A stretch of DNA of 34,913 nt from Alphaproteobacteria bacterium (GCA_045635125.1 JAZRBO010000093.1:1-34913), one strand, 5' to 3'. Numbered from the stretch's first letter, positions 23,169-33,780 are shown. The notes: generated by a model from the letters alone, not told the origin. A program made the numbers and translations.

Positions 23169-23783
23169 ATGAATAGTGTATGGGAAAAAATAGATTGGTC
23201 TTTAAATCGAGAAGATGTTTTGAAAGAAACGATAAAGTTAATTAAAGCTGGCGCCGATGTAAATGCTAAGTGCGAAGATGGTGAACCACCTTTATTGAAG
23301 GCTATTTTTAGTGGGCACCAAGAATGTGCCATACAATTAATTAAAGCCGGTGCTGATGTGAATGCTAAGGATGAATGTGGCGAAACGGCCTTGATGTATG
23401 CTGCTGAGGAAGGTCAGGCAGAGTGTGTTGCTCAGTTAATTAAAGCCGGCGCTGATGTGAATGCTAAGGATGAAGAAGGAAAAACAGCCTTAATGTATGC
23501 TGCTGAAGAAGGTTATACCGAATGTGTTGAACAATTAATTGAGGCGGGTGCTGATGTGAATGCAAAGGATAGATTTGGCGAAACGGTCTTGATGTATGCT
23601 GCTGAAGGACACACGGAATGTGCGTGTATAATAAATCATGCTATTGCAAATCGAAAGAGGGCTCAAGTAATCAAGGATAAATTGCGTGCATCACAAAAAA
23701 AGATTATTCCTGATATAAAAAATCGATTGAAGGTTCGTTCTATTATTGCAAAACGAATGAATGAACGTGAACGCGAAAGATAA
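23169..23783 (+). CDS. Ankyrin-repeat protein (four consecutive 33-aa ANK units plus a basic tail)
   Basis: Repeated LIKAGADVNAKDE.GETALMYAAEEG..ECV.Q units. Confidence 0.9.
   Translation: MNSVWEKIDWSLNREDVLKETIKLIKAGADVNAKCEDGEPPLLKAIFSGHQECAIQLIKAGADVNAKDECGETALMYAAEEGQAECVAQLIKAGADVNAKDEEGKTALMYAAEEGYTECVEQLIEAGADVNAKDRFGETVLMYAAEGHTECACIINHAIANRKRAQVIKDKLRASQKKIIPDIKNRLKVRSIIAKRMNERERER
23238..23633 (+). repeat. Four tandem 99-bp coding repeats (ANK units)
   Basis: Units start at 23238, 23337, 23436 and 23535, each opening with ttaatt(a/g)a(a/g)gc. The middle two are very similar at the DNA level. Confidence 0.85.
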
Positions 23784-23836: not shown

Positions 23837-23933
23837 ACCCACCTGAATATACAAATCTGATTTTGTTTTTGTGTGAACTATATTAAAAGTATAAAAAAAC
23901 CTACTTAACACAAAGGTTAAATAGGAAATTGGT

Positions 23934-23960
23934 GGTGTTACTTGATTTTTGAACGAAAAG
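23934..23960. repeat. Left copy of a perfect 27-bp inverted repeat
   Basis: ggtgttacttgatttttgaacgaaaag. Its exact reverse complement is at 25318-25344. Confidence 0.95.
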
Positions 23961-24020
23961 CAGGCATTTGTCCTTTGCTTTTGGGGCATTTTGCGAATGA
24001 ATAGTATGCAAAATAAATCC

Positions 24021-24049
24021 TTGACTTTTGAAGTAATTTGTGTTATAAT
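24021..24049 (+). promoter_or_regulatory. Consensus extended -10 sigma70 promoter of the cassette
   Basis: ttgact, 17-nt spacer ending in tgt, tataat. Confidence 0.7.
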
Positions 24050-24055
24050 CCACTT

Positions 24056-24125
24056 CAGTTAACAGGGAAAACTATGCCCTGTTTTTTTATTGCCCATAGG
24101 GAATGAAACCTTATGGGCTTTTTTA
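24056..24125 (+). promoter_or_regulatory. Structured 5' leader or small RNA with two tandem terminator-like hairpins
   Basis: Hairpin 1 (24062-24082) is acaggg / ccctgt followed by T7. Hairpin 2 (24092-24118) is gcccatagg / cc(t)tatgggc followed by T6. Both lie between the promoter and the first start codon. Confidence 0.45.
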
Positions 24126-24147
24126 TTATTAAATGAAAGGAAAACAA

Positions 24148-24807
24148 ATGAAATTAAATATTATTGTTTCAGATTACACTTATATGAAAGACACTTATTG
24201 TATCGCAGGATGGAGTCCTAGCGAACAGCGCATGCGCAGATTGATGATTAATGGGCATCATTGGTCTGAAGAAGAAGCAAAACAAGTAAAAGGGCATTCA
24301 TGTATTCAAGTTGAAACAATGTCAATCCCACCAGAGGAAGGTCGCGATTATCCTCACAAAAAGGAAGATACTTGGATTTCTGAAAATATTATACCTCTAT
24401 ATCATTACGATACACCCGCAGATCTTGCTTATGAATTAGAAGGCAGTTTATCAAAGAATATAGCTAGTGTTTTCTCAGGTCATCTAAAAGATAATTCATA
24501 TGTTTTGCCCGGAACAAAATGTGCATCTTTGGGGGCGATTAAAGTTCCGGCTCAAAACTTGGAATTTTATAAGGATAGTGAAAATAAGTTACGCATTAAA
24601 ATTTGGGACAATAATGGAGAAAAGTATGATTTACGTATTACATGTCGTTATTTAAGAGATGTTTTAGACAAGATGAATGGCCTAAAAAAATTAAACGAAC
24701 AACTAAAAGAAATGACTTTTGCTCATGTACGAGTTGGATTGGCAAAACCTTATTACAAACAAAACAATCATTGCTTTTTAATGTGTAATGGTGTATTCTT
24801 ATATTAA
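24148..24807 (+). CDS. Hypothetical protein, no family recognised (first gene of the inverted-repeat-bounded cassette)
   Basis: I prefer ATG 24148 (aaagga 7 nt upstream); ATG 24133 is the alternative. I see no nucleotide-binding or catalytic motif. The N-terminal pattern (IIVSDYTYMKDTYCIAGW) and C-terminal pattern (VRVGLAKPY...CFLMCNG) suggest a beta-rich, possibly OB-like fold, which is a guess only. The gap to the next gene is 12 nt. Confidence 0.7.
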   Translation: MKLNIIVSDYTYMKDTYCIAGWSPSEQRMRRLMINGHHWSEEEAKQVKGHSCIQVETMSIPPEEGRDYPHKKEDTWISENIIPLYHYDTPADLAYELEGSLSKNIASVFSGHLKDNSYVLPGTKCASLGAIKVPAQNLEFYKDSENKLRIKIWDNNGEKYDLRITCRYLRDVLDKMNGLKKLNEQLKEMTFAHVRVGLAKPYYKQNNHCFLMCNGVFLY

Positions 24808-24819
24808 GAAAGGAAAACG

Positions 24820-25245
24820 ATGCGTCTTTATACAATTGGTTTTACTGGGAAATCTGCCAGAGAGTTTTTTACCATTTTAAAACACTCTGATGTTAAGAAA
24901 GTGATTGATGTTCGCTTGTGGCCCAATACTCAATTATCTGGATTTTCAAAATCAGAAGATTTAGCTTTCTTTTTAAAAGTCCTGTGCCATATTGATTATG
25001 AACATAGAAAAGACTTTGCCCCAACAGCTACACTTCTACGGGATTATAAAGACGGGCGTGTTACTTGGGATGATTATGTTGTGCAATATGATAGTATTTG
25101 TCATGCACGTTATTTTACCTTAACGCCAGATATGGATAACTGGTGTTTTTTATGTGCAGAACCGACACCTGAAAAATGCCATCGGCGATTGCTGGTGGAA
25201 TATTTGGCAAAGCAAGGACAGAATGTGGAAATTGTGCATTTGTAA
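24820..25245 (+). CDS. DUF488-family protein
   Basis: N-terminus MRLYTIGFTGKSAREFF...VIDVR and C-terminal CAEPTPEKCHRRLL match the DUF488 (YeaO-like) pattern as I remember it. RBS aaagga. Confidence 0.8.
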   Translation: MRLYTIGFTGKSAREFFTILKHSDVKKVIDVRLWPNTQLSGFSKSEDLAFFLKVLCHIDYEHRKDFAPTATLLRDYKDGRVTWDDYVVQYDSICHARYFTLTPDMDNWCFLCAEPTPEKCHRRLLVEYLAKQGQNVEIVHL

Positions 25246-25317
25246 TTATGATGACCTTAAAAATTTTCTGGGATGATCAAAAAAGTGTGTATGATTTGGG
25301 TGTGATGCGATTACTTA

Positions 25318-25344
25318 CTTTTCGTTCAAAAATCAAGTAACACC
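25318..25344. repeat. Right copy of the perfect 27-bp inverted repeat
   Basis: cttttcgttcaaaaatcaagtaacacc, the reverse complement of 23934-23960. Confidence 0.95.
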
Positions 25345-25374
25345 CTGCATACAATAGTATGCAGGTGATTTTTT
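25344..25374 (+). terminator. Rho-independent terminator abutting the right inverted repeat
   Basis: 9-bp stem cctgcatac / gtatgcagg, loop aata, then tga plus T6. Confidence 0.7.
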
Positions 25375-25544
25375 CATTTTCTACGGAAACTAGCATATAT
25401 TCATTTACTTTTGGCCCTTTTTGTAAATGACTTGTATGCAAAAATAGTGTTGCTTATCGTCAAAAATGCGCCTTTTCAAAATATAAGTTGATAAATCTGT
25501 CAATAAGAGCATGTATGGTGATGTCTCAATTGAAAGGAGAACAC

Positions 25545-25640
25545 ATGGAAAAACAACTTAAACTCCTGGTACAAATCATCCTGCCAACTCTCTTAACCGT
25601 ATTGAAAAATAAGAAAATCAAAAAACGCCACCCAAGTTGA
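25545..25640 (+). CDS. Candidate 31-aa hydrophobic/basic peptide (type I toxin-like or small membrane protein)
   Basis: aaaggag lies 7 nt upstream of the ATG. The translation is MEKQLKLLVQIILPTLLTVLKNKKIKKRHPS. A 7-bp hairpin at 25642-25662 follows directly. Confidence 0.4.
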   Translation: MEKQLKLLVQIILPTLLTVLKNKKIKKRHPS

Positions 25641-25944
25641 TGTACTTTTTATGCCAAAGTACCGATTTGTTTTCTGCCATTCTTCCGGTCAAGATTCTGC
25701 TAAATCACCGTTTTTGGCTCTTTTTTAGATATTCCAAAAACGCCTGACATCCTTCATAAATATCCCAATAGGATTCGTCAAAATTTCCGGCGTACCAAAG
25801 CTCACCTAGACTTTTTTCTTGATTTTATTGGCCCCTTACCAGCCTAAGTTCGTGTTCTGTATACTAAAAAAATAAAAACGCAACATAGTCACTTATTTAC
25901 TCATAACCTAAACATTCTCCAAGCAGAAATTTTATATAGATTAT

Positions 25945-26472
25945 TTAATATGGGATATTACTAAATAGCATATCTCGTCCTGAATAGTTCCAATAACGAA
26001 TATCTTGCTCAATGAATAACCATTTCAGGACTTTTATAATCATTTCGGCAGAAAACCGTCCAGACGTAAAATTGAGTGAGAGTAATTGTGCATCAGTAAT
26101 TTCTTGGCATTGGTAAATTTTTTTAATGTAAGTATATAACGTTGAATACAACGTTGGTTCAGTATTTTTCTTTGCAATTAAATCATTTAGAATATCTTGA
26201 TGTTTTGGTGCATTTCGTTTTCTTCCAGATGTGGAAAAACTAATATTTTCTACACAAACAAGAAAATCAAAGCCATTGTGAAGAAAAGCGGGTCTTCTTA
26301 AGTAAATTCTATTACCATCACTGAGGGTTTCGACATAGTAAGTATATCTGCTTGCTAAGTTTTGTTTACCTCTCCCCTTTGCCTCCTGTGAAAATTTTTC
26401 GACAACTCTCATCCTGACTTCATTTGGAGTTCCTAGATTGCTAAAATTACATGTGGTGTTATATTCAGCCAT
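25945..26472 (-). CDS. Hypothetical 175-aa protein transcribed divergently from the DpnII-type operon
   Basis: ATG 26472 has an aaggaagg RBS (MAEYNTTCNF...). The ORF-track start at 26556 adds 28 unlikely residues. I recognise no motif. Confidence 0.65.
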   Translation of the reverse strand: MAEYNTTCNFSNLGTPNEVRMRVVEKFSQEAKGRGKQNLASRYTYYVETLSDGNRIYLRRPAFLHNGFDFLVCVENISFSTSGRKRNAPKHQDILNDLIAKKNTEPTLYSTLYTYIKKIYQCQEITDAQLLSLNFTSGRFSAEMIIKVLKWLFIEQDIRYWNYSGRDMLFSNIPY

Positions 26473-26591
26473 AAAATACCTTCCTTTACGAAGAAATAGT
26501 AGCACGTGGCAAATATTTTTACAATAAAAATTTATTTTGCTTGCTATAATTTTCAAATAAGCCTATACTCATTTTTGACCTAGGATACAAA

Positions 26592-27527
26592 ATGAATAAT
26601 GCATTAATTTTAAATGAAGACTATTTAGAGTTTCATGCAAAGCCTGTTTTAAAGTGGGCTGGTGGCAAAGGCATGCTCCTGCCTCAAATCACAGAATATT
26701 TACCTACAAAATTAAAGTTCGGGGCCATTAAGCGTTATGTTGAGCCATTTGTAGGTGGTGGTGCTGTTTTCTTTGAATTGGCAAATAACTATAATCTTGA
26801 GGATGCTTATCTGTTTGATGTTAATCCCGAACTGGTTATACTTTATAACGTAATCAAAAATAACGTTGAAGACTTGATTGCTGAGTTATCAACTTTGCAA
26901 CAAGCCTATAACGAAGCTCAGGATAAAACTGCCTTCTATTATGCTATTCGCGATGAGTATAACCATTTTGATAAAAATGTGGATGCAAATAAATATACAA
27001 CCAGTTTTATCAGACGGGCTGCTTTGACTGTTTGCTTAAATAGGACTTGCTTTAATGGCTTGTTTAGGGTTAATTCAAAGGGGCTGTTTAATGTTCCGGT
27101 CGGAAAGTACAAGAATCCGCGAATTTTAGATGAAAGCAATCTAAGAGAAGTCTCAAAAGCCCTGCAGTGCGCAACAATACTGCAAACAGATTTTGCTTCT
27201 GCTTTAGATTATGTAACTTCAGACACTTTTATATATTATGACCCACCGTATCGGCCGATTAACGCTAGTTCGTTTAACTCTTATGCAGTTGGTGATTTTG
27301 ACGATGATGAGCAAAGACGTTTGAAAGATGTCTTCGCTAAGGCTAATGAGATGGGGGCATTGCAAATGCTCAGTAACTCTGATCCGACTAATTACAATCC
27401 TAAAGATATGTTCTTTGATAGTTTATATCGTGATTATAAGATTTATAGAATTTGGGCAAAGAGAATGATAAATGCCGATCCGAATGGTCGCAATGGTGTA
27501 AGGGAACTTTTAATTACGAACTATTGA
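26592..27527 (+). CDS. dpnM: Dam-type (alpha-class) N6-adenine DNA methyltransferase, DpnM-like (GATC)
   Basis: KWAGGK, SAM motif EPFVGGGAV, catalytic YYDPPY, and first position in a DpnII-type three-gene operon. Confidence 0.88.
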   Translation: MNNALILNEDYLEFHAKPVLKWAGGKGMLLPQITEYLPTKLKFGAIKRYVEPFVGGGAVFFELANNYNLEDAYLFDVNPELVILYNVIKNNVEDLIAELSTLQQAYNEAQDKTAFYYAIRDEYNHFDKNVDANKYTTSFIRRAALTVCLNRTCFNGLFRVNSKGLFNVPVGKYKNPRILDESNLREVSKALQCATILQTDFASALDYVTSDTFIYYDPPYRPINASSFNSYAVGDFDDDEQRRLKDVFAKANEMGALQMLSNSDPTNYNPKDMFFDSLYRDYKIYRIWAKRMINADPNGRNGVRELLITNY

Positions 27528-27529
27528 GA

Positions 27530-28315
27530 ATGAAAGAGATTTATAATTTATATTGTGCCGATTGTATTAAAAAATTAAAAGATTTCCCTGAAAACACTTT
27601 TGATATGATTTTTGCTGACCCGCCTTATATGCTTTCTAATGGTGGTATTAGTTGTCAAAACGGACGTGTTGTTTCTGTTAATAAAGGTGATTGGGATGAG
27701 AGCAAAGGTTTCAAAGAAGATTTTAAATTTCACAAGAAATGGTTGTCGGCATGTAAGCGCGTTTTGAAACCAAATGGGACTTTATGGGTATCCGGAACCT
27801 ATCACAGCATTTTTCAATGCGGTTTTGCTATGCAATTACTAGGTTATCATATTTTAAATGATATTTCATGGTTTAAGCCTAATGCCAGTCCGAATATGTC
27901 TTGTCGTTATTTCACAGCCAGTCATGAAACCTTGATTTGGGCCAGAAAAGATAAGAAGTCGCGGCACTATTTTAATTATGATGCAATGAAAGACGGAGAT
28001 TTCCCGAAAGACTTTATTAAAAAGCCTCACTCGCAAATGAGAAGTGTTTGGTCTATCGGAACACCTACACCAAGTGAAAAACAATTTGGGAAGCACCCGA
28101 CCCAAAAGCCTTTGGAGTTGTTGGAACGAATCATTCTCGCTTCAACAAAGGAAAATGACCTGATTTTGGATCCGTTTATGGGAAGTGGCACAACCGGAGT
28201 AGCCGCTATGAAATTAGGCCGGCAATTTATCGGAATCGAAAAGAATCCGGAATTTATTGTGTTGGCGGATAAAAGGATTTTTGATGCGTATCAACATAAG
28301 GAGAATAAAGAATGA
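27530..28315 (+). CDS. dpnA: Beta-class N6-adenine DNA methyltransferase, DpnA-like
   Basis: N-terminal catalytic FADPPY and C-terminal SAM motif DPFMGSGTTGVAA. ATG 27530 lies 2 nt after the dpnM stop. The stop overlaps the next start (ATGA). Confidence 0.85.
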   Translation: MKEIYNLYCADCIKKLKDFPENTFDMIFADPPYMLSNGGISCQNGRVVSVNKGDWDESKGFKEDFKFHKKWLSACKRVLKPNGTLWVSGTYHSIFQCGFAMQLLGYHILNDISWFKPNASPNMSCRYFTASHETLIWARKDKKSRHYFNYDAMKDGDFPKDFIKKPHSQMRSVWSIGTPTPSEKQFGKHPTQKPLELLERIILASTKENDLILDPFMGSGTTGVAAMKLGRQFIGIEKNPEFIVLADKRIFDAYQHKENKE

Positions 28316-29208
28316 AAAATAATCCAGTTTTCAAAAACATTTTGAATTGCAATAGTGATGATGAAGTTTTTTCATATTTGATTGCCACATTAAAAGAAAC
28401 AATCAAATCATGGGATTATTTTGTTAACTGGAAAAAGGTAATTCATAACTATCGTGAAGTCGAACGCTCATTAAATTTATTAAACACTTTGGTTGGTAAA
28501 GAGAATATTGAGGAAGAAGCATTGGCTTTATTAACGGATTATCCGCAAATTATTGGCGTTGTTCCTGCTTTGTTAGCAGAAAGAGAAAAGAAAATCAGCT
28601 TGTTGGTTACTCCAAATAATTTTGATGCTAGAAGATTTGATTTTTCAAAACCAATGCCGGCAAAAGATGGTGTTCTGTTCTTAAAAGAAAGTGGATTCTT
28701 AAAACTTATTTCAGATCGCAGTATTAAGTCTATCCCTGATTATTTTATCGGTGTTGAAGTTGGTCTTGATTCAAATGGTCGCAAAAATCGTAGCGGCACT
28801 TCCATGGAAAACTTGGTTGAGTTCTTTGTAAAAGACATTTGTGAGAGAAACGGTTACGAATATATTACCCAGGCTACGGCAGATAAAATCAAGGCAAAAT
28901 GGGGTAAAAATATTACAGTAACAAAATCTTCAAAGAGAATAGATTTTGCTATCAACACGCCCAAGAAACTGTATTTGATTGAAACGAACTTTTATGGAGG
29001 CGGTGGTTCTAAGTTGAAATCAACTGCCGGCGAATATGCCGATATCTATCATCAGTGGACAAGAGATGGACATCAATTCATTTGGGTAACAGATGGTTAT
29101 GGTTGGAAAACAACCCAACGCCCATTACGTGATACATTTAACACAACAGATTATATCATTAATCTTGATATGATTCAAAAAGGGGTATTAGAGGAATTGT
29201 TAAAATAA
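28312..29208 (+). CDS. dpnB: Type II restriction endonuclease, DpnII/MboI family (GATC)
   Basis: The core GVEVGLDSNGRKNRSGTSMENLVE and LIETNFYGGGGSKL...FIWVTDGYGW resemble R.DpnII as I recall it. It is the third gene after two adenine MTases. Confidence 0.82.
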   Translation: MKNNPVFKNILNCNSDDEVFSYLIATLKETIKSWDYFVNWKKVIHNYREVERSLNLLNTLVGKENIEEEALALLTDYPQIIGVVPALLAEREKKISLLVTPNNFDARRFDFSKPMPAKDGVLFLKESGFLKLISDRSIKSIPDYFIGVEVGLDSNGRKNRSGTSMENLVEFFVKDICERNGYEYITQATADKIKAKWGKNITVTKSSKRIDFAINTPKKLYLIETNFYGGGGSKLKSTAGEYADIYHQWTRDGHQFIWVTDGYGWKTTQRPLRDTFNTTDYIINLDMIQKGVLEELLK

Positions 29209-29229
29209 TTTATAAGATAGAGATTCGAT

Positions 29230-31011
29230 ATGAAACTAAAAAAGGTTCGCTTAAAAAATTTTCGAGGTTATTTAGATACGACCTTTCCCATAAATAATTT
29301 AAACGTACTAATTGGTAAAAATGATGTGGGTAAATCAACAGTTATTGATGCCTTGGATATATATTTTAATGATGCCTCTATAGAAGCTTCTGATTTTAAT
29401 GTTTATGCTGCTCATTCAGAAACAGGAAGTATTGAAATATCATGTTCTTTTGAAATAGATCCAAATGAACCAATTACTCTGGATTCAAGTGAAAACACAG
29501 CAACAACTTTAGGAGCAGAATATTTATTAAATAAAGAAAATTTGTTAGAAATATCAAAAAAATATGAATGCTCAAATGGTAAGATTAAAAAGCCCGTGGT
29601 ACAAATTGTTGCAAAGCATCCAAAGAATTTTGAAAAAGCTTTAATTTGTTTGAAAATACAAGATTTGTTAAAGTTGACTGACAGCAAAAATATTTCTGTT
29701 CCTAATCGAAATGTAAAGAAAGAAATTCGGAAGGCTATTTTTGAACAATATCCAAATATAGAATGGGTTGATGATTTCTTAATAAGTATAGATGCTAAGG
29801 ATGGTGATATAATACCTGTATTCAATAAATTTAAGGATGATTTTCCTGCGTTTTTAATTTTTCGTGCAGACAGAACAAATACAGACAAAGATAAAGAGGT
29901 AAACGATACTACAAAAGCGATTGCAAAAGCAGCTGTTTCAGAATTAGAATCTAAATTCTCTGAAATTAAGAGAATAGTGATAGAGCAAATACAAGCACTT
30001 GCTGATAAAACTCTTCTTAAATTAAATGAGTTTGATGAACATATAGCCAAGGAATTAAAAACAAATATCGAAACAAAAACGCTAGATTCCTTATTCTCTT
30101 TTACCTTCAATTGTGAAGATGGAATATCCTTTAACAAAAGAGGAAGTGGTATTAAAAGGTTAATGCTTTTAAGTTTTTTTCTTGCAGAAGCAGAAAGGAA
30201 AAATATAAGTAAAAATATAATTTATGCAATAGAAGAACCGGAAACTTCCCAACATCCTGATTTTCAAATTATGTTAATGAATGCTTTGAAAGATCTTTCG
30301 GATTCAGATAATCGTCAAATTCTATTGACAACACATACACCAGAAATAGTAAAAATGATTAACAAAGAGGATTTGATTTTCATTCAAAAGAATCATGAAG
30401 ATCATTTAATTTCAATAGAAACGAACGATGATATTGAAATATCAAAAGTTGCAGACACATTGGGTATATTGCCTTTTGTATCTTATAAGGGGGTTATTTT
30501 TGTAGAAGGTAAAACAGATACCCGTTTCTTGAAAAACTTAAGTAGAATAGATGAATTCCGAAGTATAATTGATCTCACTCACTTTACTTTTATTGAGTTA
30601 TATGGCGGTGGTAATGTAGACCTATGGATTAAAGCGAATTACCTGAAAGATACAAATATAAAGTGTTTGTATTTTAGGGATAGAGATGAAAGTACACCAA
30701 GCCCATCTGTTGTCCATCCTCAAAAAGTGATTATAACAGCGAAACGTGAAATAGAAAATTACATCCCTCTACATTTAATTGAAAACTATTTTAATATAAG
30801 TTTTACAGATAAAGAAAAGGAAGATTGGAATAATATAGATGTTGCCAATATATTACATAATAAATGTCATAAAAAATACAGTGAAGCCGCTATAAAAAAA
30901 ATGTTGCAGGCAACTGAGATTTGGGAAAAAATATATTTTTCAGAAGATGTTAAGAAGGAAATTAGGAGTTGGTTTGAAGATATAAAAGAATTTTTCAATG
31001 GATGCCGGTAG
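29230..31011 (+). CDS. OLD-family ABC-ATPase plus TOPRIM nuclease (class 1-like, or a fused PARIS-like AriAB)
   Basis: ATPase: Walker A GKNDVGKST, RGSGIKRL, Walker B IIYAIEEPE, LLTTHTPE. TOPRIM-like: FVEGKTD, YGGG, FRDRDE, REIENYIP. It starts 21 nt after the restriction gene. Confidence 0.75.
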   Translation: MKLKKVRLKNFRGYLDTTFPINNLNVLIGKNDVGKSTVIDALDIYFNDASIEASDFNVYAAHSETGSIEISCSFEIDPNEPITLDSSENTATTLGAEYLLNKENLLEISKKYECSNGKIKKPVVQIVAKHPKNFEKALICLKIQDLLKLTDSKNISVPNRNVKKEIRKAIFEQYPNIEWVDDFLISIDAKDGDIIPVFNKFKDDFPAFLIFRADRTNTDKDKEVNDTTKAIAKAAVSELESKFSEIKRIVIEQIQALADKTLLKLNEFDEHIAKELKTNIETKTLDSLFSFTFNCEDGISFNKRGSGIKRLMLLSFFLAEAERKNISKNIIYAIEEPETSQHPDFQIMLMNALKDLSDSDNRQILLTTHTPEIVKMINKEDLIFIQKNHEDHLISIETNDDIEISKVADTLGILPFVSYKGVIFVEGKTDTRFLKNLSRIDEFRSIIDLTHFTFIELYGGGNVDLWIKANYLKDTNIKCLYFRDRDESTPSPSVVHPQKVIITAKREIENYIPLHLIENYFNISFTDKEKEDWNNIDVANILHNKCHKKYSEAAIKKMLQATEIWEKIYFSEDVKKEIRSWFEDIKEFFNGCR

Positions 31012-31021
31012 CTGCAAGATT

Positions 31022-32695
31022 CTAACAATTTTCAAAATTAGACTTGTCAATAAAGTTCAATAATTCTTCTACTTTTGTTTTTAAATCTAAATGCTTTTCC
31101 AAATTTTGTGAGGTATACCACTTTGAACTTGTAATATCTGATGCAAATTGTACCTTGTCAAATGTTTTTACATCTGAGATCCGTTTATATAGATTAAGAA
31201 AAGAATCAAATTTATCTAATTGGATATCCTTATCGAAATAAGATGATAGTACATTATTGGGGATATAATTTTCTATCTCTCGACCACTTGTGATCCAATA
31301 ATTTTTTCCTAATTCATCTCGAATTCGTCTCACCCTATCTTTTAAACGTGATTGTTTCGAACCTTTATCGCTATCCATCACAATGTATGAGTTTTTATTA
31401 ATTTTTAATAAATTTATAAAGTTATCCTGATTAATCGCAGAATAATGTGCTAATAAAGTTCCACCATAAAATAAAAATTGATAGTGTAGCCCCTCTTCAA
31501 ATCTTTTATTAGGGCTAAAAAGTTCTATCCATTTTTTGATATAAATCCTATCAGAAGGTCCTTCAACCCATATAACGCAATTAGATTGAAGCAAATCACT
31601 CGCTTTTACTCCTAAATCATCCAATAGTTTTCTCTTATCATCATCGGTACTTACTGTTTCTACAGTAGAAGCATACCCATCATTGTATACTCGCACAATT
31701 TGAGCTTTTGAATTACTATTAAACAAATCGATCGCAACATTAGAGTGAGTAGTCAAAAAAACGTAGTTATTCGGATGTTGATCAATGTAGGTACTGATAT
31801 GTGATAATAATTTTCTTTCTAAGCTAGGATGCATATTGTTTTCTAATTCTTCAAATGCAAAAATAAAATGCTTTTTACTTTGGAAACGAGGTACAATATA
31901 TAACAAAGTCAGAGTTGCAATGATTGTTTTTAAGCCACTACCACAATCGGATAGTCTAACACCACCTTTTCTTGCTTCTTCTAAGTAGATTTCATGATAA
32001 TTGTTAGATGAAATTTTTGTATAGATTCTCTCAAATTTTATTTCAGGAGATACAATCTCATTGATTTTTTGTAAAAAATCTTTTTCTATAAAATCTTGCC
32101 AATGTTCAGTGTTACCATCTTCATCATTTAGCATTTTTGCAATAATATCAGTTACACCAACTGCATTATCAGACACAGAAGGTTGTATGTTTTTACCACA
32201 ATTAATTACTTCTTTTTTTATATCTCTTTCTGCTTTCAAGTGCAAGAATTCATATTCTTGAAGATATTTTCTATTAACTCGTTCTTGAATTCTCTGAAGT
32301 ATATCTATTTTAGGTAAGCCAATACCATCAATATTAATATCTATAAGTTTTTTTGTATCATCTATTTGTTGGAACAGTATCTCTTTGCCTACTAGATATT
32401 GACCTATATCATCCCAATCATTTCCATAGTAAGATAGGCTAGAAAGCATAGAACGTGCATTTTGTGGAAATATTTTCTGTAATTCATCAGAAGACAATTT
32501 GTGTTGGCATAAGGTTTGAAATGGTAAGCCTTTATCATCATTTTCAACTATTGCTTTCAATGCCTCTAAAAGCTTCGATTTTCCACTATTGTTTTTCCCT
32601 ATAATGACATTAATTGGCTTGATAGTTTCAAATCCTTGAGAATCTCTATCGTTAACAAAACATTTGTAATTTTTAATCTTAATTGAAGTATACAT
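31022..32695 (-). CDS. Second OLD-family ABC-ATPase plus TOPRIM nuclease, convergent paralogue
   Basis: ATPase: Walker A GKNNSGKSK, CGSGLKT, Walker B FIFAFEELE, FLTTHSN. TOPRIM-like: WVEGPSD, FYGG, VMDSDKG, REIENYIP. Confidence 0.75.
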   Translation of the reverse strand: MYTSIKIKNYKCFVNDRDSQGFETIKPINVIIGKNNSGKSKLLEALKAIVENDDKGLPFQTLCQHKLSSDELQKIFPQNARSMLSSLSYYGNDWDDIGQYLVGKEILFQQIDDTKKLIDINIDGIGLPKIDILQRIQERVNRKYLQEYEFLHLKAERDIKKEVINCGKNIQPSVSDNAVGVTDIIAKMLNDEDGNTEHWQDFIEKDFLQKINEIVSPEIKFERIYTKISSNNYHEIYLEEARKGGVRLSDCGSGLKTIIATLTLLYIVPRFQSKKHFIFAFEELENNMHPSLERKLLSHISTYIDQHPNNYVFLTTHSNVAIDLFNSNSKAQIVRVYNDGYASTVETVSTDDDKRKLLDDLGVKASDLLQSNCVIWVEGPSDRIYIKKWIELFSPNKRFEEGLHYQFLFYGGTLLAHYSAINQDNFINLLKINKNSYIVMDSDKGSKQSRLKDRVRRIRDELGKNYWITSGREIENYIPNNVLSSYFDKDIQLDKFDSFLNLYKRISDVKTFDKVQFASDITSSKWYTSQNLEKHLDLKTKVEELLNFIDKSNFENC

Positions 32696-32816
32696 AACCA
32701 GAATTCCTTTGTCATCATTCTATTATAAAGGGCACGAAATTTCAACATTTTTCCATATTTCACTGGACTTTTCTTTTATTCCAAGCATTCATTGTGTTGC
32801 AACGAAAGGAAAACTG

Positions 32817-33065
32817 ATGAAAATGCGCAAGTATGAGGATATCTCCCCCAGCAACCGGACAAACTTTACAATGCTTTATTACCACGCCGGCCGGATTTTG
32901 ACACATATTGAAACTCAACTGAAACAGGCTTATGGCAATCCTCTCCCCATCAAACAGGCGCGAAATCTGACCCGTATGCAACACAAATTGGAACAAATGG
33001 TTGCACGTTATAAACAAATGAAAGCGGACCTGGACAAGGAATATCAACTCAAAAAAGCAAAATAG
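32817..33065 (+). CDS. Hypothetical 82-aa helical, basic protein
   Basis: ATG 32817 has aaagga 6 nt upstream (MKMRKYEDISPSNRT...KQMKADLDKEYQLKKAK). The longer ORF-track start at 32709 is unlikely. GC is visibly higher than in the neighbouring OLD gene. Confidence 0.5.
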   Translation: MKMRKYEDISPSNRTNFTMLYYHAGRILTHIETQLKQAYGNPLPIKQARNLTRMQHKLEQMVARYKQMKADLDKEYQLKKAK

Positions 33066-33068
33066 GGC

Positions 33069-33097
33069 TTGTTTTTTGAACGTTCTTCGTATATAAT
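33069..33097 (+). promoter_or_regulatory. Candidate sigma70 promoter
   Basis: ttgttt, 17-nt spacer, tataat. Confidence 0.4.
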
Positions 33098-33103
33098 CAG
33101 TTC

Positions 33104-33310
33104 TGTTAGGACAGCCCAAGTTCTAACAAGGGAGTACAAACCCTGATTCTCGTGGGCAAGGGACTTTTGTATTATTGAAAGTTTCTTTGTTTGTGGGCAT
33201 CTCACCGTTTGGTGGGTGCCGGCGATATAAGGCATGCTCGAATAAACCGGGCTACTTTTCACGAGATTCGTAGTTTGTAACACCCACCGCCTTCTGGCGG
33301 TGTTTTGTTT
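33104..33310 (+). ncRNA. Candidate ~200-nt structured RNA (free-standing ncRNA or riboswitch/attenuator leader of the SLOG-SIR2 genes)
   Basis: There is no plausible ORF. Hairpin at 33105-33127 (gttaggac / gttctaac). Hairpin at 33196-33220 (10 bp, one bulge). Long-range pairing of tctcgtg (33148-33154) with cacgaga (33260-33266). It ends in an intrinsic terminator. I recognise no family. Confidence 0.4.
33285..33310 (+). terminator. Rho-independent terminator 20 nt upstream of the SLOG gene start
   Basis: caccgcc ttct ggcggtg, followed by ttttgttt. Confidence 0.7.
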
Positions 33311-33330
33311 GGGCTGACAGGTAATTCAGT

Positions 33331-33780
33331 TTGAGCATCTGCGCGTTCTTTGGCCACCGTGACACCCCTATGTCCAGCAATATAGAGCGACATTTAGAGG
33401 AAGTTATCAGAGATTTAATAGCCCAAGGGATAGATGAATTTTGGCTGTGCGAGCAAGGCACATTTGACTGTATGGCGCGCCTTACCTTGAAAGAATTAAA
33501 AAAGGAGTTTAGAGGGATTTCCCTGTGTTTGCTTCCGGCGTATCATCCAAGTGATGCCAAAATGGAGTGGGTTGAGGCGCAAGATTATGACCTGATATAC
33601 CCCGATGAAGTGGCCAACGCCCCAGCGCAAGTTGCTATTTTAAGACGAAATAACTACATCGCCAAGAATGCGGATTATATTGTTTGCTATATCACCCATA
33701 ATTCCGGTGGCGCTTATAAGGCTGTCGAAAAAGCCCGAAAACATAAAAAGAAAATCATCAACCTGGTCGAGTATATTTAA
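33331..33780 (+). CDS. SLOG-superfamily protein, DUF1273/YoqJ-like
   Basis: TTG start. The N-terminus ICAFFGHRD and the overall pattern (…GIDEFWLCEQGTFD…, …RRNNYIAKNADYIVCY…GGAYKAV) fit DUF1273. Confidence 0.7.
   Translation: MSICAFFGHRDTPMSSNIERHLEEVIRDLIAQGIDEFWLCEQGTFDCMARLTLKELKKEFRGISLCLLPAYHPSDAKMEWVEAQDYDLIYPDEVANAPAQVAILRRNNYIAKNADYIVCYITHNSGGAYKAVEKARKHKKKIINLVEYI

Follow-up and report, generated by a model that had tools for sequence, protein, structure and literature searches.

A conserved, terminator-associated 27-bp inverted repeat around a DuOB-DUF488 gene pair at the edge of a defence hot spot in uncultured gut Alphaproteobacteria

What is the role of a perfect inverted repeat that encloses a complete expression unit but no transposase? 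The question is raised by a locus in a 34,913-nt stretch of DNA from an alphaproteobacterium (GCA_045635125.1, JAZRBO010000093.1:1-34913; 'the window' hereafter means this whole stretch), in which two copies of a 27-mer in opposite orientation surround a promoter, a leader and two genes (Table 1). A preliminary description of this DNA had reported an exact 27-bp repeat far beyond chance, a consensus promoter, a hairpin-rich leader, an open reading frame (ORF) of 219 codons followed 12 nt downstream by a DUF488 gene, and a terminator starting at the last base of the right repeat, and all of these were recovered. Two of its proposals had to be given up. The 219-aa protein, described as belonging to no recognised family, is a member of the Pfam family PF22557 (DuOB), and the likeness to a mobile insertion cassette with insertion sequence-like ends did not survive comparison with related loci, which showed a resident left arm, missing right arms, no target duplication and one locus per genome. 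On the sequence comparisons described here, the 27-mer is instead a conserved, locus-specific element whose orientation is tied to transcription terminators and which lies at the left edge of a defence hot spot.

The left arm (GGTGTTACTTGATTTTTGAACGAAAAG) and the reverse complement of the right arm agree at 27/27 positions and lie 1357 nt apart. With up to three mismatches allowed, the two arms were the only copies of the 27-mer in the 34.9-kb window, where 0.00 were expected from 100 shuffles. The bases flanking the arms (TTGGT before GGTG... on the left, CTGCA after ...CACC on the right) differ, and no target-site duplication was found at them; nor was any transposase or recombinase found among the neighbouring ORFs scanned against Pfam and NCBIfam, in the window and in the related loci L008-L016. 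On both points the preliminary description had come to the same result. The internal dyad symmetry of the 27-mer is weak, and comparison by eye with the consensus sequences gave no convincing match, and no suitable dyad symmetry, for dif/Xer, integron attC, hix/gix or Ter-like sites. A check for attachment sites revealed no tRNA or tmRNA gene in the window.

Further traces of the motif were found around the right arm. An extra partial forward copy (GGTGT-gatgcga-TTACTT, 25299-25316) lies inside the 3' untranslated region (3'UTR) of the DUF488 gene and could pair with the outer part of the right arm. A degenerate forward copy beyond the terminator matches the left-arm segment at 26/45 positions without gaps, in the same register and with the same 45-nt spacing to TTTTGG; its score was reached by 4 of 69,736 background windows, namely the query segment, the right arm, the degenerate copy itself and one unrelated window. 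Together, the right arm, the terminator and the degenerate copy form an imperfect palindrome around the terminator. The small hairpin that follows the left arm occurs among the loci in two alternative stem versions (e.g. CAGGC...GTCC and GGATGC...ATCC). Separately, DUF488 contains at 25057-25068 (+), in the codons for RVTW, a stretch of 10 nt identical to the outer portion of the 27-mer (GTGTTACTTG); this match may be due to chance (about 0.03 expected) or may have given rise to the motif.

A scan for exact matches, with one genome for each species, would miss diverged copies; it located the 27-mer in 11 other species, all of them uncultured gut or rumen Alphaproteobacteria represented by metagenome-assembled genomes (MAGs), and on two metagenome contigs carrying the same type of locus. 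No copy was found in collections of viral contigs, plasmids and phages. Every one of the 11 species had a single locus per genome, so that the preliminary description's own reservation, that the 27-mer might be a genome-wide repeat of the repetitive extragenic palindromic type, was not borne out.

About 30 related loci (designated by L numbers) were compared. The 27-mer has exactly two sequence contexts, and similarity between these contexts begins and ends precisely at the 27 nt. The left-type context consists of a terminator hairpin of variable sequence, (A)ATTGGT, the 27-mer, the small hairpin and TTTTGGGGCATTTTGC..., whilst the right-type context consists of the DUF488 3'UTR (...GATTACTTA), the reverse-complemented 27-mer and the terminator CTGCATACAATAGTATGCAGG with its T-run. 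The right arm was seen only beside the DUF488 3'UTR, in one sub-clade.

The left arm belongs to a resident small-ORF unit, which in its basic form comprises the 27-mer, the small hairpin, an upstream region of about 150 nt and a 31-aa hydrophobic ORF with a basic tail. At the cassette-free loci L010, L013, L018 and L036 the left arm is contiguous with this unit. In the window the cassette is inserted inside the unit, just upstream of the -35 element, and about 40 nt are duplicated; the second copy of this direct repeat starts at 25409, and the cassette-free loci have a single copy. In a sister clade (L023-L032), whose cassettes are about 88 % identical, the left arm differs at three positions and the right arm and its terminator are absent: the 3'UTR joins the small-ORF unit directly, and the 83-bp difference is bounded by TTACTTTT repeats. 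More distant DuOB-DUF488 operons have neither arm. Other arrangements were also seen, with the cassette placed after the small ORF in L016, L019 and L037 and partly deleted in L009 and L014. Homology between the window and L004 (94.7 %, blastn) extends from 23930 to 25640, 300 bp beyond the right arm. These comparisons indicate that the left arm is resident and the right arm clade-specific. Since the left arm is resident, cassettes without a right arm exist and homology continues past the right arm, a unit moving from arm to arm is excluded.

Divergence was calculated over eight cassette-bearing loci. It was 1.9 % in the left arm, 0.5 % in the right arm and 1.0 % in the 72-nt 3'UTR, compared with 3.8 % in DUF488 and 5.6 % in DuOB. 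Elsewhere it reached 7.6 % in the hairpin and duplicated region (60 nt after the left arm), 9 % in the post-terminator spacer, 11 % in the leader and 12 % in the small ORF. The 72-nt 3'UTR was 100 % identical in five other species. The 3'UTR and right arm thus make up a 99-nt non-coding stretch that evolves several-fold more slowly than the genes preceding it, and it is therefore probably a functional RNA. For the 27-mer itself, this pattern indicates that it is under selection and that a neutral scar does not fit. Two coding explanations for the conservation were considered and rejected: a 30-codon ORF over the 3'UTR and right arm (25248-25340) is interrupted by a stop codon in L025, L026 and L031, and a minus-strand ORF across the left arm has different frames in the window and L010.

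The second regularity concerns terminators. On the right, the hairpin part of the plus-strand terminator (25344-25365, followed by T6) has as its first base the last base of the right arm, and compensatory variants of its stem were found in L015 and L016. On the left, minus-strand terminators flank 13 of the 15 distinct left-arm contexts, and the stems of these hairpins share no sequence similarity; the flanking hairpins of L010 and of the window (23925-23900) have a T-run on the minus strand only. When every copy is oriented as CTTTTCGTTCAAAAATCAAGTAACACC (CTTTTCG...CACC), a hairpin with a T-run follows 0-15 nt later on the same strand in 18 of 21 distinct contexts (17 by an explicit rule and one clear by eye). 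The copy at 25364-25390, which heads the intact small-ORF unit and does not have this terminator-adjacent position, has degenerated. The cassette of L008, which is inserted leftward, continues through the left arm and on into the terminator of that arm, and the cassette mRNA therefore ends with the same module.

From the anatomy, distribution, conservation and terminator adjacency of the 27-mer, we infer that it acts as RNA, as a strand-specific element at the 3' ends of transcripts that is used on both strands. A DuOB-DUF488 operon with its own promoter and leader would have been captured inside the resident small-ORF unit, duplicating about 40 nt. The element would act in one orientation, as RNA reading CUUUUCGUUCAAAAAUCAAGUAACACC directly 5' of a terminator hairpin. 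Its right copy would serve the rightward DuOB-DUF488 mRNA and its left copy any transcripts that exit the locus leftward, such as an antisense RNA or those of cassettes in the opposite orientation, as in L008. The inverted-repeat geometry would therefore follow from one module facing outward on opposite strands. The RNA might serve a 3'UTR-derived small RNA (sRNA) as its seed or its binding site, or might be a signal for stability or processing.

We hold this reading tentatively, with somewhat less than even confidence, because no leftward promoter was found and because there is too little variation for a test of RNA structure. Consensus scans for a leftward promoter through the left arm gave weak candidates only, and variation within the 27-mer and 3'UTR was too low for covariation to be assessed. 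Several other observations also weigh against it. Many of the flanking hairpins are bidirectional and could be plain terminators of upstream genes. Identity at all 27 positions would be expected equally from pairing between the arms or from a recombinase site, and two breakpoints of rearrangements coincide exactly with the outer GGTG edge of a 27-mer copy (copy 2 of L016, and L011), which hints at activity at the DNA level. The best duplex of the 27-mer with a trans target within the locus (-16.9 kcal/mol, at the 10-nt match in DUF488, about 25058) did not surpass shuffles (mean -15.9) and gave no convincing target. The 3'-end fold was modestly better than shuffles (z -2.0), and no Rfam 15 family scored close to its gathering threshold with the leader, the small-ORF leader or the 3'UTR that includes the 27-mer. 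Finally, the exact-match search biases solo left arms towards perfect copies. Samples free of this bias were the second arm of two-arm loci, loci found through their proteins (L004) and a sample reached via an antisense pseudo-ORF, in which the 27-mer was exact in L036, had one mismatch in L037 and one change in P0163. Inside the 3'UTR, a scan for an independent promoter also gave weak candidates only.

Alternatively, the arms may act as a complementary pair. Sense RNA of the left arm, arising by read-through from upstream and ending at the small hairpin, would anneal over 27 bp to the 3' terminus of the DuOB-DUF488 mRNA and lead to cleavage of this mRNA, as with type I antitoxins, or else a long upstream transcript would be locked by pairing of its 5' and 3' parts. 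All 27 nt are complementary, and conservation is far higher in the two arms than around them; moreover, the left arm of the sister clade, where a right arm is lacking, has changed at three positions, compared with two changes in the next 50 nt. The right arm is certainly transcribed within the 3'UTR, and the small hairpin with its U-run past the left arm could end a short plus-strand RNA. However, the left arm lies upstream of the sole recognisable promoter (24021-24049) and so close behind a terminator hairpin that a conserved promoter would not fit in between. Solo left arms at loci without a right arm are also conserved (L010, L013 and L036), and changes in one arm (a mismatch in L012, a 1-nt deletion in L011) are not matched in the other. 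We regard pairing of the arms as distinctly unlikely.

The right arm could also have arisen when the front of the small-ORF unit was duplicated locally in inverted orientation (by template switch or fold-back). The arms would then be kept identical by gene conversion or recent spread, and the inverted arrangement would be a scar with no function. Full, partial and degenerate copies of the motif (at 23934, 25299, 25318 and 25364) and the imperfect palindrome they help to form are what such an event would leave behind, the right arm is polymorphic between loci as an indel with 8-bp direct repeats at its limits, and microhomology deletion junctions were seen in L019. Neutral DNA should nevertheless diverge like the non-coding neighbours (7-12 %), whereas in eight species both arms differ by at most 2 %, and their identity holds from one species to another and not just inside a genome; conservation is as high in the 72-nt 3'UTR next to the right arm, and the equivalent copy at 25364-25390 has decayed whilst the right arm has not. 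A rearrangement scar accounts for the origin of the right arm, not for its conservation, and as an explanation of the whole arrangement it seems rather improbable.

Invertible segments flanked by inverted repeats of about 27 bp are well known, and the arms might be crossover sites of a recombinase encoded elsewhere, bounding a shufflon-like invertible segment, or recombination hot spots that drive cassette exchange. The locus is indeed much rearranged, with the cassette of L008 in the opposite orientation, part of the flank of L016 inverted and deletions in L009, L014 and L019, and both the breakpoints at the GGTG edge and the strict conservation of all 27 positions would suit such a site. Against this, the segment between the arms points the same way in each of the eight two-arm loci, and these consensus assemblies showed no junction in which the left-arm flank was recombined with the 3'UTR; the scanned neighbouring genes include no recombinase. 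Inverting a complete promoter-to-terminator unit would change nothing obvious, and the dyad symmetry of the 27-mer is weak. The inverted cassette of L008 has no right arm, and the majority of junctions fall within the 40-nt direct repeat ahead of the -35 element rather than in the 27-mer. A role as recombinase site is accordingly hard to credit, and we give it little weight.

Least probable is a non-autonomous mobile insertion cassette, in which the arms would be terminal inverted repeats, the genes passengers and the transposase located elsewhere: perfect, terminal-looking repeats do enclose a complete expression unit without a transposase, and the block from left arm to terminator in L011 has different flanks on both sides, but the cassette fails all four defining tests (repeats as both boundaries, target duplication, dispersed or autonomous copies and repeat-free empty sites), since no target duplication was found in the window, L004, L011, L012 or L015, there is one locus per genome in 11 species and the collections of viruses, plasmids and phages contained no copy, the left arm is still there at sites that have no cassette, cassettes of this kind occur with the right arm missing and with both arms missing, homology runs 300 bp past the right arm, and no autonomous relative was found. 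The terminal repeats of the Tn3 family presumably share GAACGAAAA at a similar offset from a G-rich tip, a lead that is contradicted by the missing 5-bp duplications and the lack of dispersal. Inverted repeats on either side of passenger genes are not enough to identify a mobile cassette, although they are commonly misread in that way. The 27-mer and the ultra-conserved 3'UTR merit study at the RNA level.

Table 1. Coordinates of features at the locus, counted from the first base of the window
Feature	Position	Strand	Remarks
Leftward intrinsic terminator	23900-23925	-	10-bp hairpin + T7, 8 nt outside left arm
Conserved junction AAATTGGT	23926-23933		Homology with related loci starts here; most left-arm flanks end (T)TGGT
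Left arm of 27-bp repeat	23934-23960		Resident at locus; also at cassette-free sites
Small hairpin	23961-23978		Inner GAAAAG of the arm pairs with downstream CTTTT run
First copy of ~40-nt direct repeat	23979-24020	+	Truncated small-ORF upstream region fused to cassette promoter
Sigma-70 consensus promoter TTGACT-17-TATAAT	24021-24049	+	11/12 matches, TG before -10
Leader with two tandem terminator-like hairpins and Shine-Dalgarno	24054-24147	+	Folding z -3.8
DuOB protein, 219 aa	24148-24807	+	Pfam PF22557, dual OB fold
DUF488 protein, 141 aa	24820-25245	+	PF04343; 'active' N3a subclade PF22751; PADLOC PDC-M45C
72-nt 3'UTR	25246-25317	+	Ultra-conserved; contains partial motif copy
Right arm of 27-bp repeat	25318-25344		Final 27 nt of DuOB-DUF488 3'UTR; this sub-clade only
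Strong bidirectional intrinsic terminator	25344-25375	+	9-bp stem CCTGCATAC/GTATGCAGG, then TGATTTTTT on plus strand
Degenerate forward copy of 27-mer and hairpin	25364-25408	+	Heads intact small-ORF unit
Small-ORF upstream region / 5'UTR	25409-25544	+	Second direct-repeat copy; Shine-Dalgarno partly within hairpin
Small ORF, 31 aa MEKQLKLLVQIILPTLLTVLKNKKIKKRHPS	25545-25640	+	Hydrophobic helix + basic tail
Variable defence island	25641-32755		Absent from syntenic L008; other defence genes take its place in other loci

The expression unit between the arms was found to be as self-contained as the preliminary description had proposed: promoter, leader, DuOB and DUF488 recur together in L001, L003, L006, L007 and L033. 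The promoter upstream of DuOB was kept in all loci examined. The 94-nt leader contains hairpin 1 (24061-24083, followed by U7) and hairpin 2 (24092-24118, followed by U6), and the same layout was present in 10 of the 10 leaders compared: a near-consensus promoter, about 8 nt, hairpin 1 with U7, hairpin 2 with U6-7 and a Shine-Dalgarno sequence. The leader was recorded in the window and in L001, L003, L006, L007, L008, L016, L021, L023 and L033. This architecture reaches as far as L033, a Burkholderiales MAG with 49 % protein identity, and the stem sequences differ between lineages; in hairpin 2, compensatory changes were seen at 7 of 10 pairs. The leader thus has the properties of an attenuating leader (hairpin plus U-run, structure kept rather than sequence), termination itself being a prediction. 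It would consist of two tandem intrinsic terminators, with the genes expressed only through read-through and otherwise kept nearly silent. There is no room for an alternative antiterminator fold, because hairpin 1 starts about 8 nt past the predicted transcription start. The identical type of promoter and leader also drives other cargo, a Tlde1-like protein with a small membrane protein; this cargo has the opposite orientation in L008 and is followed in L021 by DUF488 without DuOB.

DuOB matches PF22557 with 33.3 bits (cut-off 27), residues 5-216 aligning with positions 3-210 of the 210 in the profile. An AlphaFold2 model built with 21 homologues (predicted local distance difference test score, pLDDT, 88; predicted template-modelling score 0.86) is all-beta with two barrel-like halves, and points to two tandem oligonucleotide/oligosaccharide-binding (OB) folds. 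The best Protein Data Bank (PDB) folds identified by Foldseek were HIN-200 domains (AIM2, IFI16 and p202), followed by Teb1 AB, POT1 and SSB (probability 0.96-1.0, template-modelling score 0.3-0.4); the predicted fold therefore resembles HIN-200/RPA, the HIN-200 proteins being DNA sensors in the innate immunity of animals. In the homologues, five Cys and three His positions never vary. Neither DuOB nor its homologues matched any PADLOC model, even at E <= 10.

The DUF488 protein matches PF04343 with 62.5 bits (cut-off 22.2) and PF22751 with 28.4 bits (cut-off 27). Its invariant residues include D30, R32, C109, C112 and C120-H-R-R (motif C109..C112..C120-H-R-R), and a structure model (pLDDT 91) gave no significant fold match in the PDB. 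In PADLOC, the protein aligns end to end with the candidate component PDC-M45C (6.7e-48). PDC-M45 is defined there by A, B and C together, and the present pair does not qualify, because component C alone was matched, by DUF488, and DuOB matched none. Sequence searches retrieved no solved structure for either protein, exact-protein look-ups of the two window proteins returned no record, and a search of the literature on DuOB, DUF488-N3 and PDC-M45 found no experimental function for either family.

Homologues of the 219-aa protein were examined for co-occurrence with DUF488, a check that the preliminary description had suggested, and a DUF488-N3a gene directly followed DuOB in every context read, from L001, L003, L006 and L007 (71-82 % DuOB identity) down to L033 (49 %). 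The neighbourhoods are unrelated, with an autotransporter, glycosyl hydrolases, AAA_21-RloB, VirB4 and, in L033, rpoD-dnaG. This recurrence in unrelated neighbourhoods identifies DuOB and DUF488 as a portable two-gene module, which, behind its structurally conserved two-hairpin leader, spans at least the Alpha- and Betaproteobacteria. A conflict-associated module of DuOB with DUF488-N3a is thus already known, though uncharacterised; the present copy occupies a defence hot spot, and its clade has the 27-mer and the 72-nt 3'UTR in addition. The module is most likely one in which the tandem-OB DuOB senses nucleic acid and DUF488-N3a acts as an enzyme. A defence role would follow from guilt by association, the hot spot carrying restriction-modification (R-M), OLD, GmrSD, Mrr and Fic cargo, but the pair of L033 lies beside rpoD-dnaG.

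The 31-aa ORF was kept in at least 12 loci (L004, L008-L010, L012-L016, L018, L019 and L036) and is called as a gene in L036; no promoter was recognised for it. Its product has the appearance of a type I toxin or of a small membrane protein. With regard to a possible type I toxin-antitoxin (TA) locus, the observations at this unit are the hydrophobic core and basic tail of the 31-aa product, the partial location of the Shine-Dalgarno sequence in a hairpin, and the minus-strand terminator beyond the left arm. If all parts of the locus were to act together, the 27-nt element and the 72-nt 3'UTR could form an undescribed regulatory RNA module that provides an sRNA-like 3' end in both outgoing directions and couples the expression or stability of DuOB-DUF488 to the toxin-like small ORF, whilst the promoter and leader hairpins would act as a conditional read-through switch for a tandem-OB, nucleic-acid-sensing defence system; this comprehensive scheme is speculative, and we think it unlikely to hold in full.

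The preliminary description had placed the cassette at the edge of a defence island, which was right and understated, as the island is a true hot spot with species-variable cargo. Upstream of the cassette the window carries leuS, clpB, a NUDIX gene and an ankyrin gene, and beyond the island a Sir2/CobB gene. The slot from the small ORF to cobB/Sir2 (25641-33667 in the window) was compared with L008, L009, L010, L012, L014, L015, L023 and L036, and the cargo between the small ORF and the conserved genes on the right (an 82-aa gene or cobB) differed in every species. In the window it comprises a 203-aa ORF, a DpnII-type R-M system (two methyltransferases and an endonuclease), an OLD/AriA-like protein with ATPase and TOPRIM domains, and a second AAA ATPase; elsewhere DpnI (L010), GmrSD (L012), T5orf172 (L009), Fic-HTH (L015), Mrr (L014), PIN_10 (L008) or DUF5655 (L036) was present. 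Between the window and L008, identity is 78 % over clpB-NUDIX, 92-98 % over the small-ORF unit and 95 % from 32756 onward. With its alternative cargo (DpnII, DpnI, GmrSD, Mrr, OLD, Fic and PIN), the hot spot should be useful for mining new systems in uncultured gut bacteria.

Several further features of this region were recorded. The 203-aa ORF beside the DpnII system (25945-26556, -) had no Pfam, NCBIfam or PADLOC match. Two ATPase genes, at 29230-31011 (+) and 31022-32695 (-), are convergent, with ends 10 nt apart; the former encodes the OLD/AriA-like protein (AAA_15 ATPase plus OLD-type TOPRIM domain) and the latter a GajA/AbiL-like AAA protein. The ankyrin gene (23169-23783) contains four tandem 99-nt repeats (61-81 % identical) at 23222-23617 (+), which encode ankyrin repeats, and its product matches the PADLOC candidate PDC-M72A (1e-31). 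A GC-rich stretch at 33085-33320 (+) is preceded by TATATAAT and has a terminator at its end (minimum free energy -91.8 kcal/mol, z -5.4 relative to shuffles; no Rfam match); it lies within a segment (32756-33520) that is 95 % identical in L008, compared with 78 % for clpB, and is a candidate non-coding RNA of about 220 nt. Another non-coding RNA is possible in L011, where a GC-rich non-coding stretch (1460-1630) upstream of the left arm ends in a bidirectional terminator.

Parts of this locus recall several known systems. Like mobile insertion cassettes, miniature inverted-repeat transposable elements and Tn3-derived miniature elements, it has perfect inverted repeats around passenger genes and no transposase inside; unlike these, it shows no target duplication, dispersal or autonomous relative, and its homology boundary is not at the right arm. 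With invertons and shufflons it shares inverted repeats of 20-30 bp around a promoter-containing segment, but it differs from them in its single orientation in eight loci, in that no recombinase was found nearby, and in being a complete unit without an obvious switch.

Other parallels exist among systems controlled by RNA. In type III TA loci, a terminator between toxI and toxN throttles expression of the toxin, and the DuOB-DUF488 leader resembles this arrangement in its strong promoter, in the intrinsic terminators ahead of effector genes and in expression by predicted read-through; here, however, there are two tandem hairpins and no repeat array, and the leader also precedes unrelated cargo (Tlde1-like, in L008 and L021). 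Small RNAs derived from 3'UTRs are known, as are type I TA pairs whose antitoxin acts on the 3' end of the toxin mRNA, such as bsrG/SR4 and txpA/RatA of Bacillus subtilis. The present locus shares with these a conserved single-stranded stretch directly 5' of an intrinsic terminator at an mRNA 3' end, and with type I systems also an adjoining small hydrophobic ORF with a long leader and two sites of extended perfect complementarity. In contrast to bsrG/SR4 and txpA/RatA, the complementary copy is 1.4 kb away and upstream of the promoter, neither convergent nor overlapping.

The hot spot as a whole is comparable to the DpnI/DpnII locus of Streptococcus pneumoniae, which carries alternating restriction cassettes, DpnI being methyl-dependent. 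In both cases alternative restriction or defence cassettes occupy one slot between conserved flanks, with DpnII in the window and DpnI in L010; the present hot spot differs in belonging to another bacterial lineage and in that one of its flanks is the small-ORF unit with the 27-mer.

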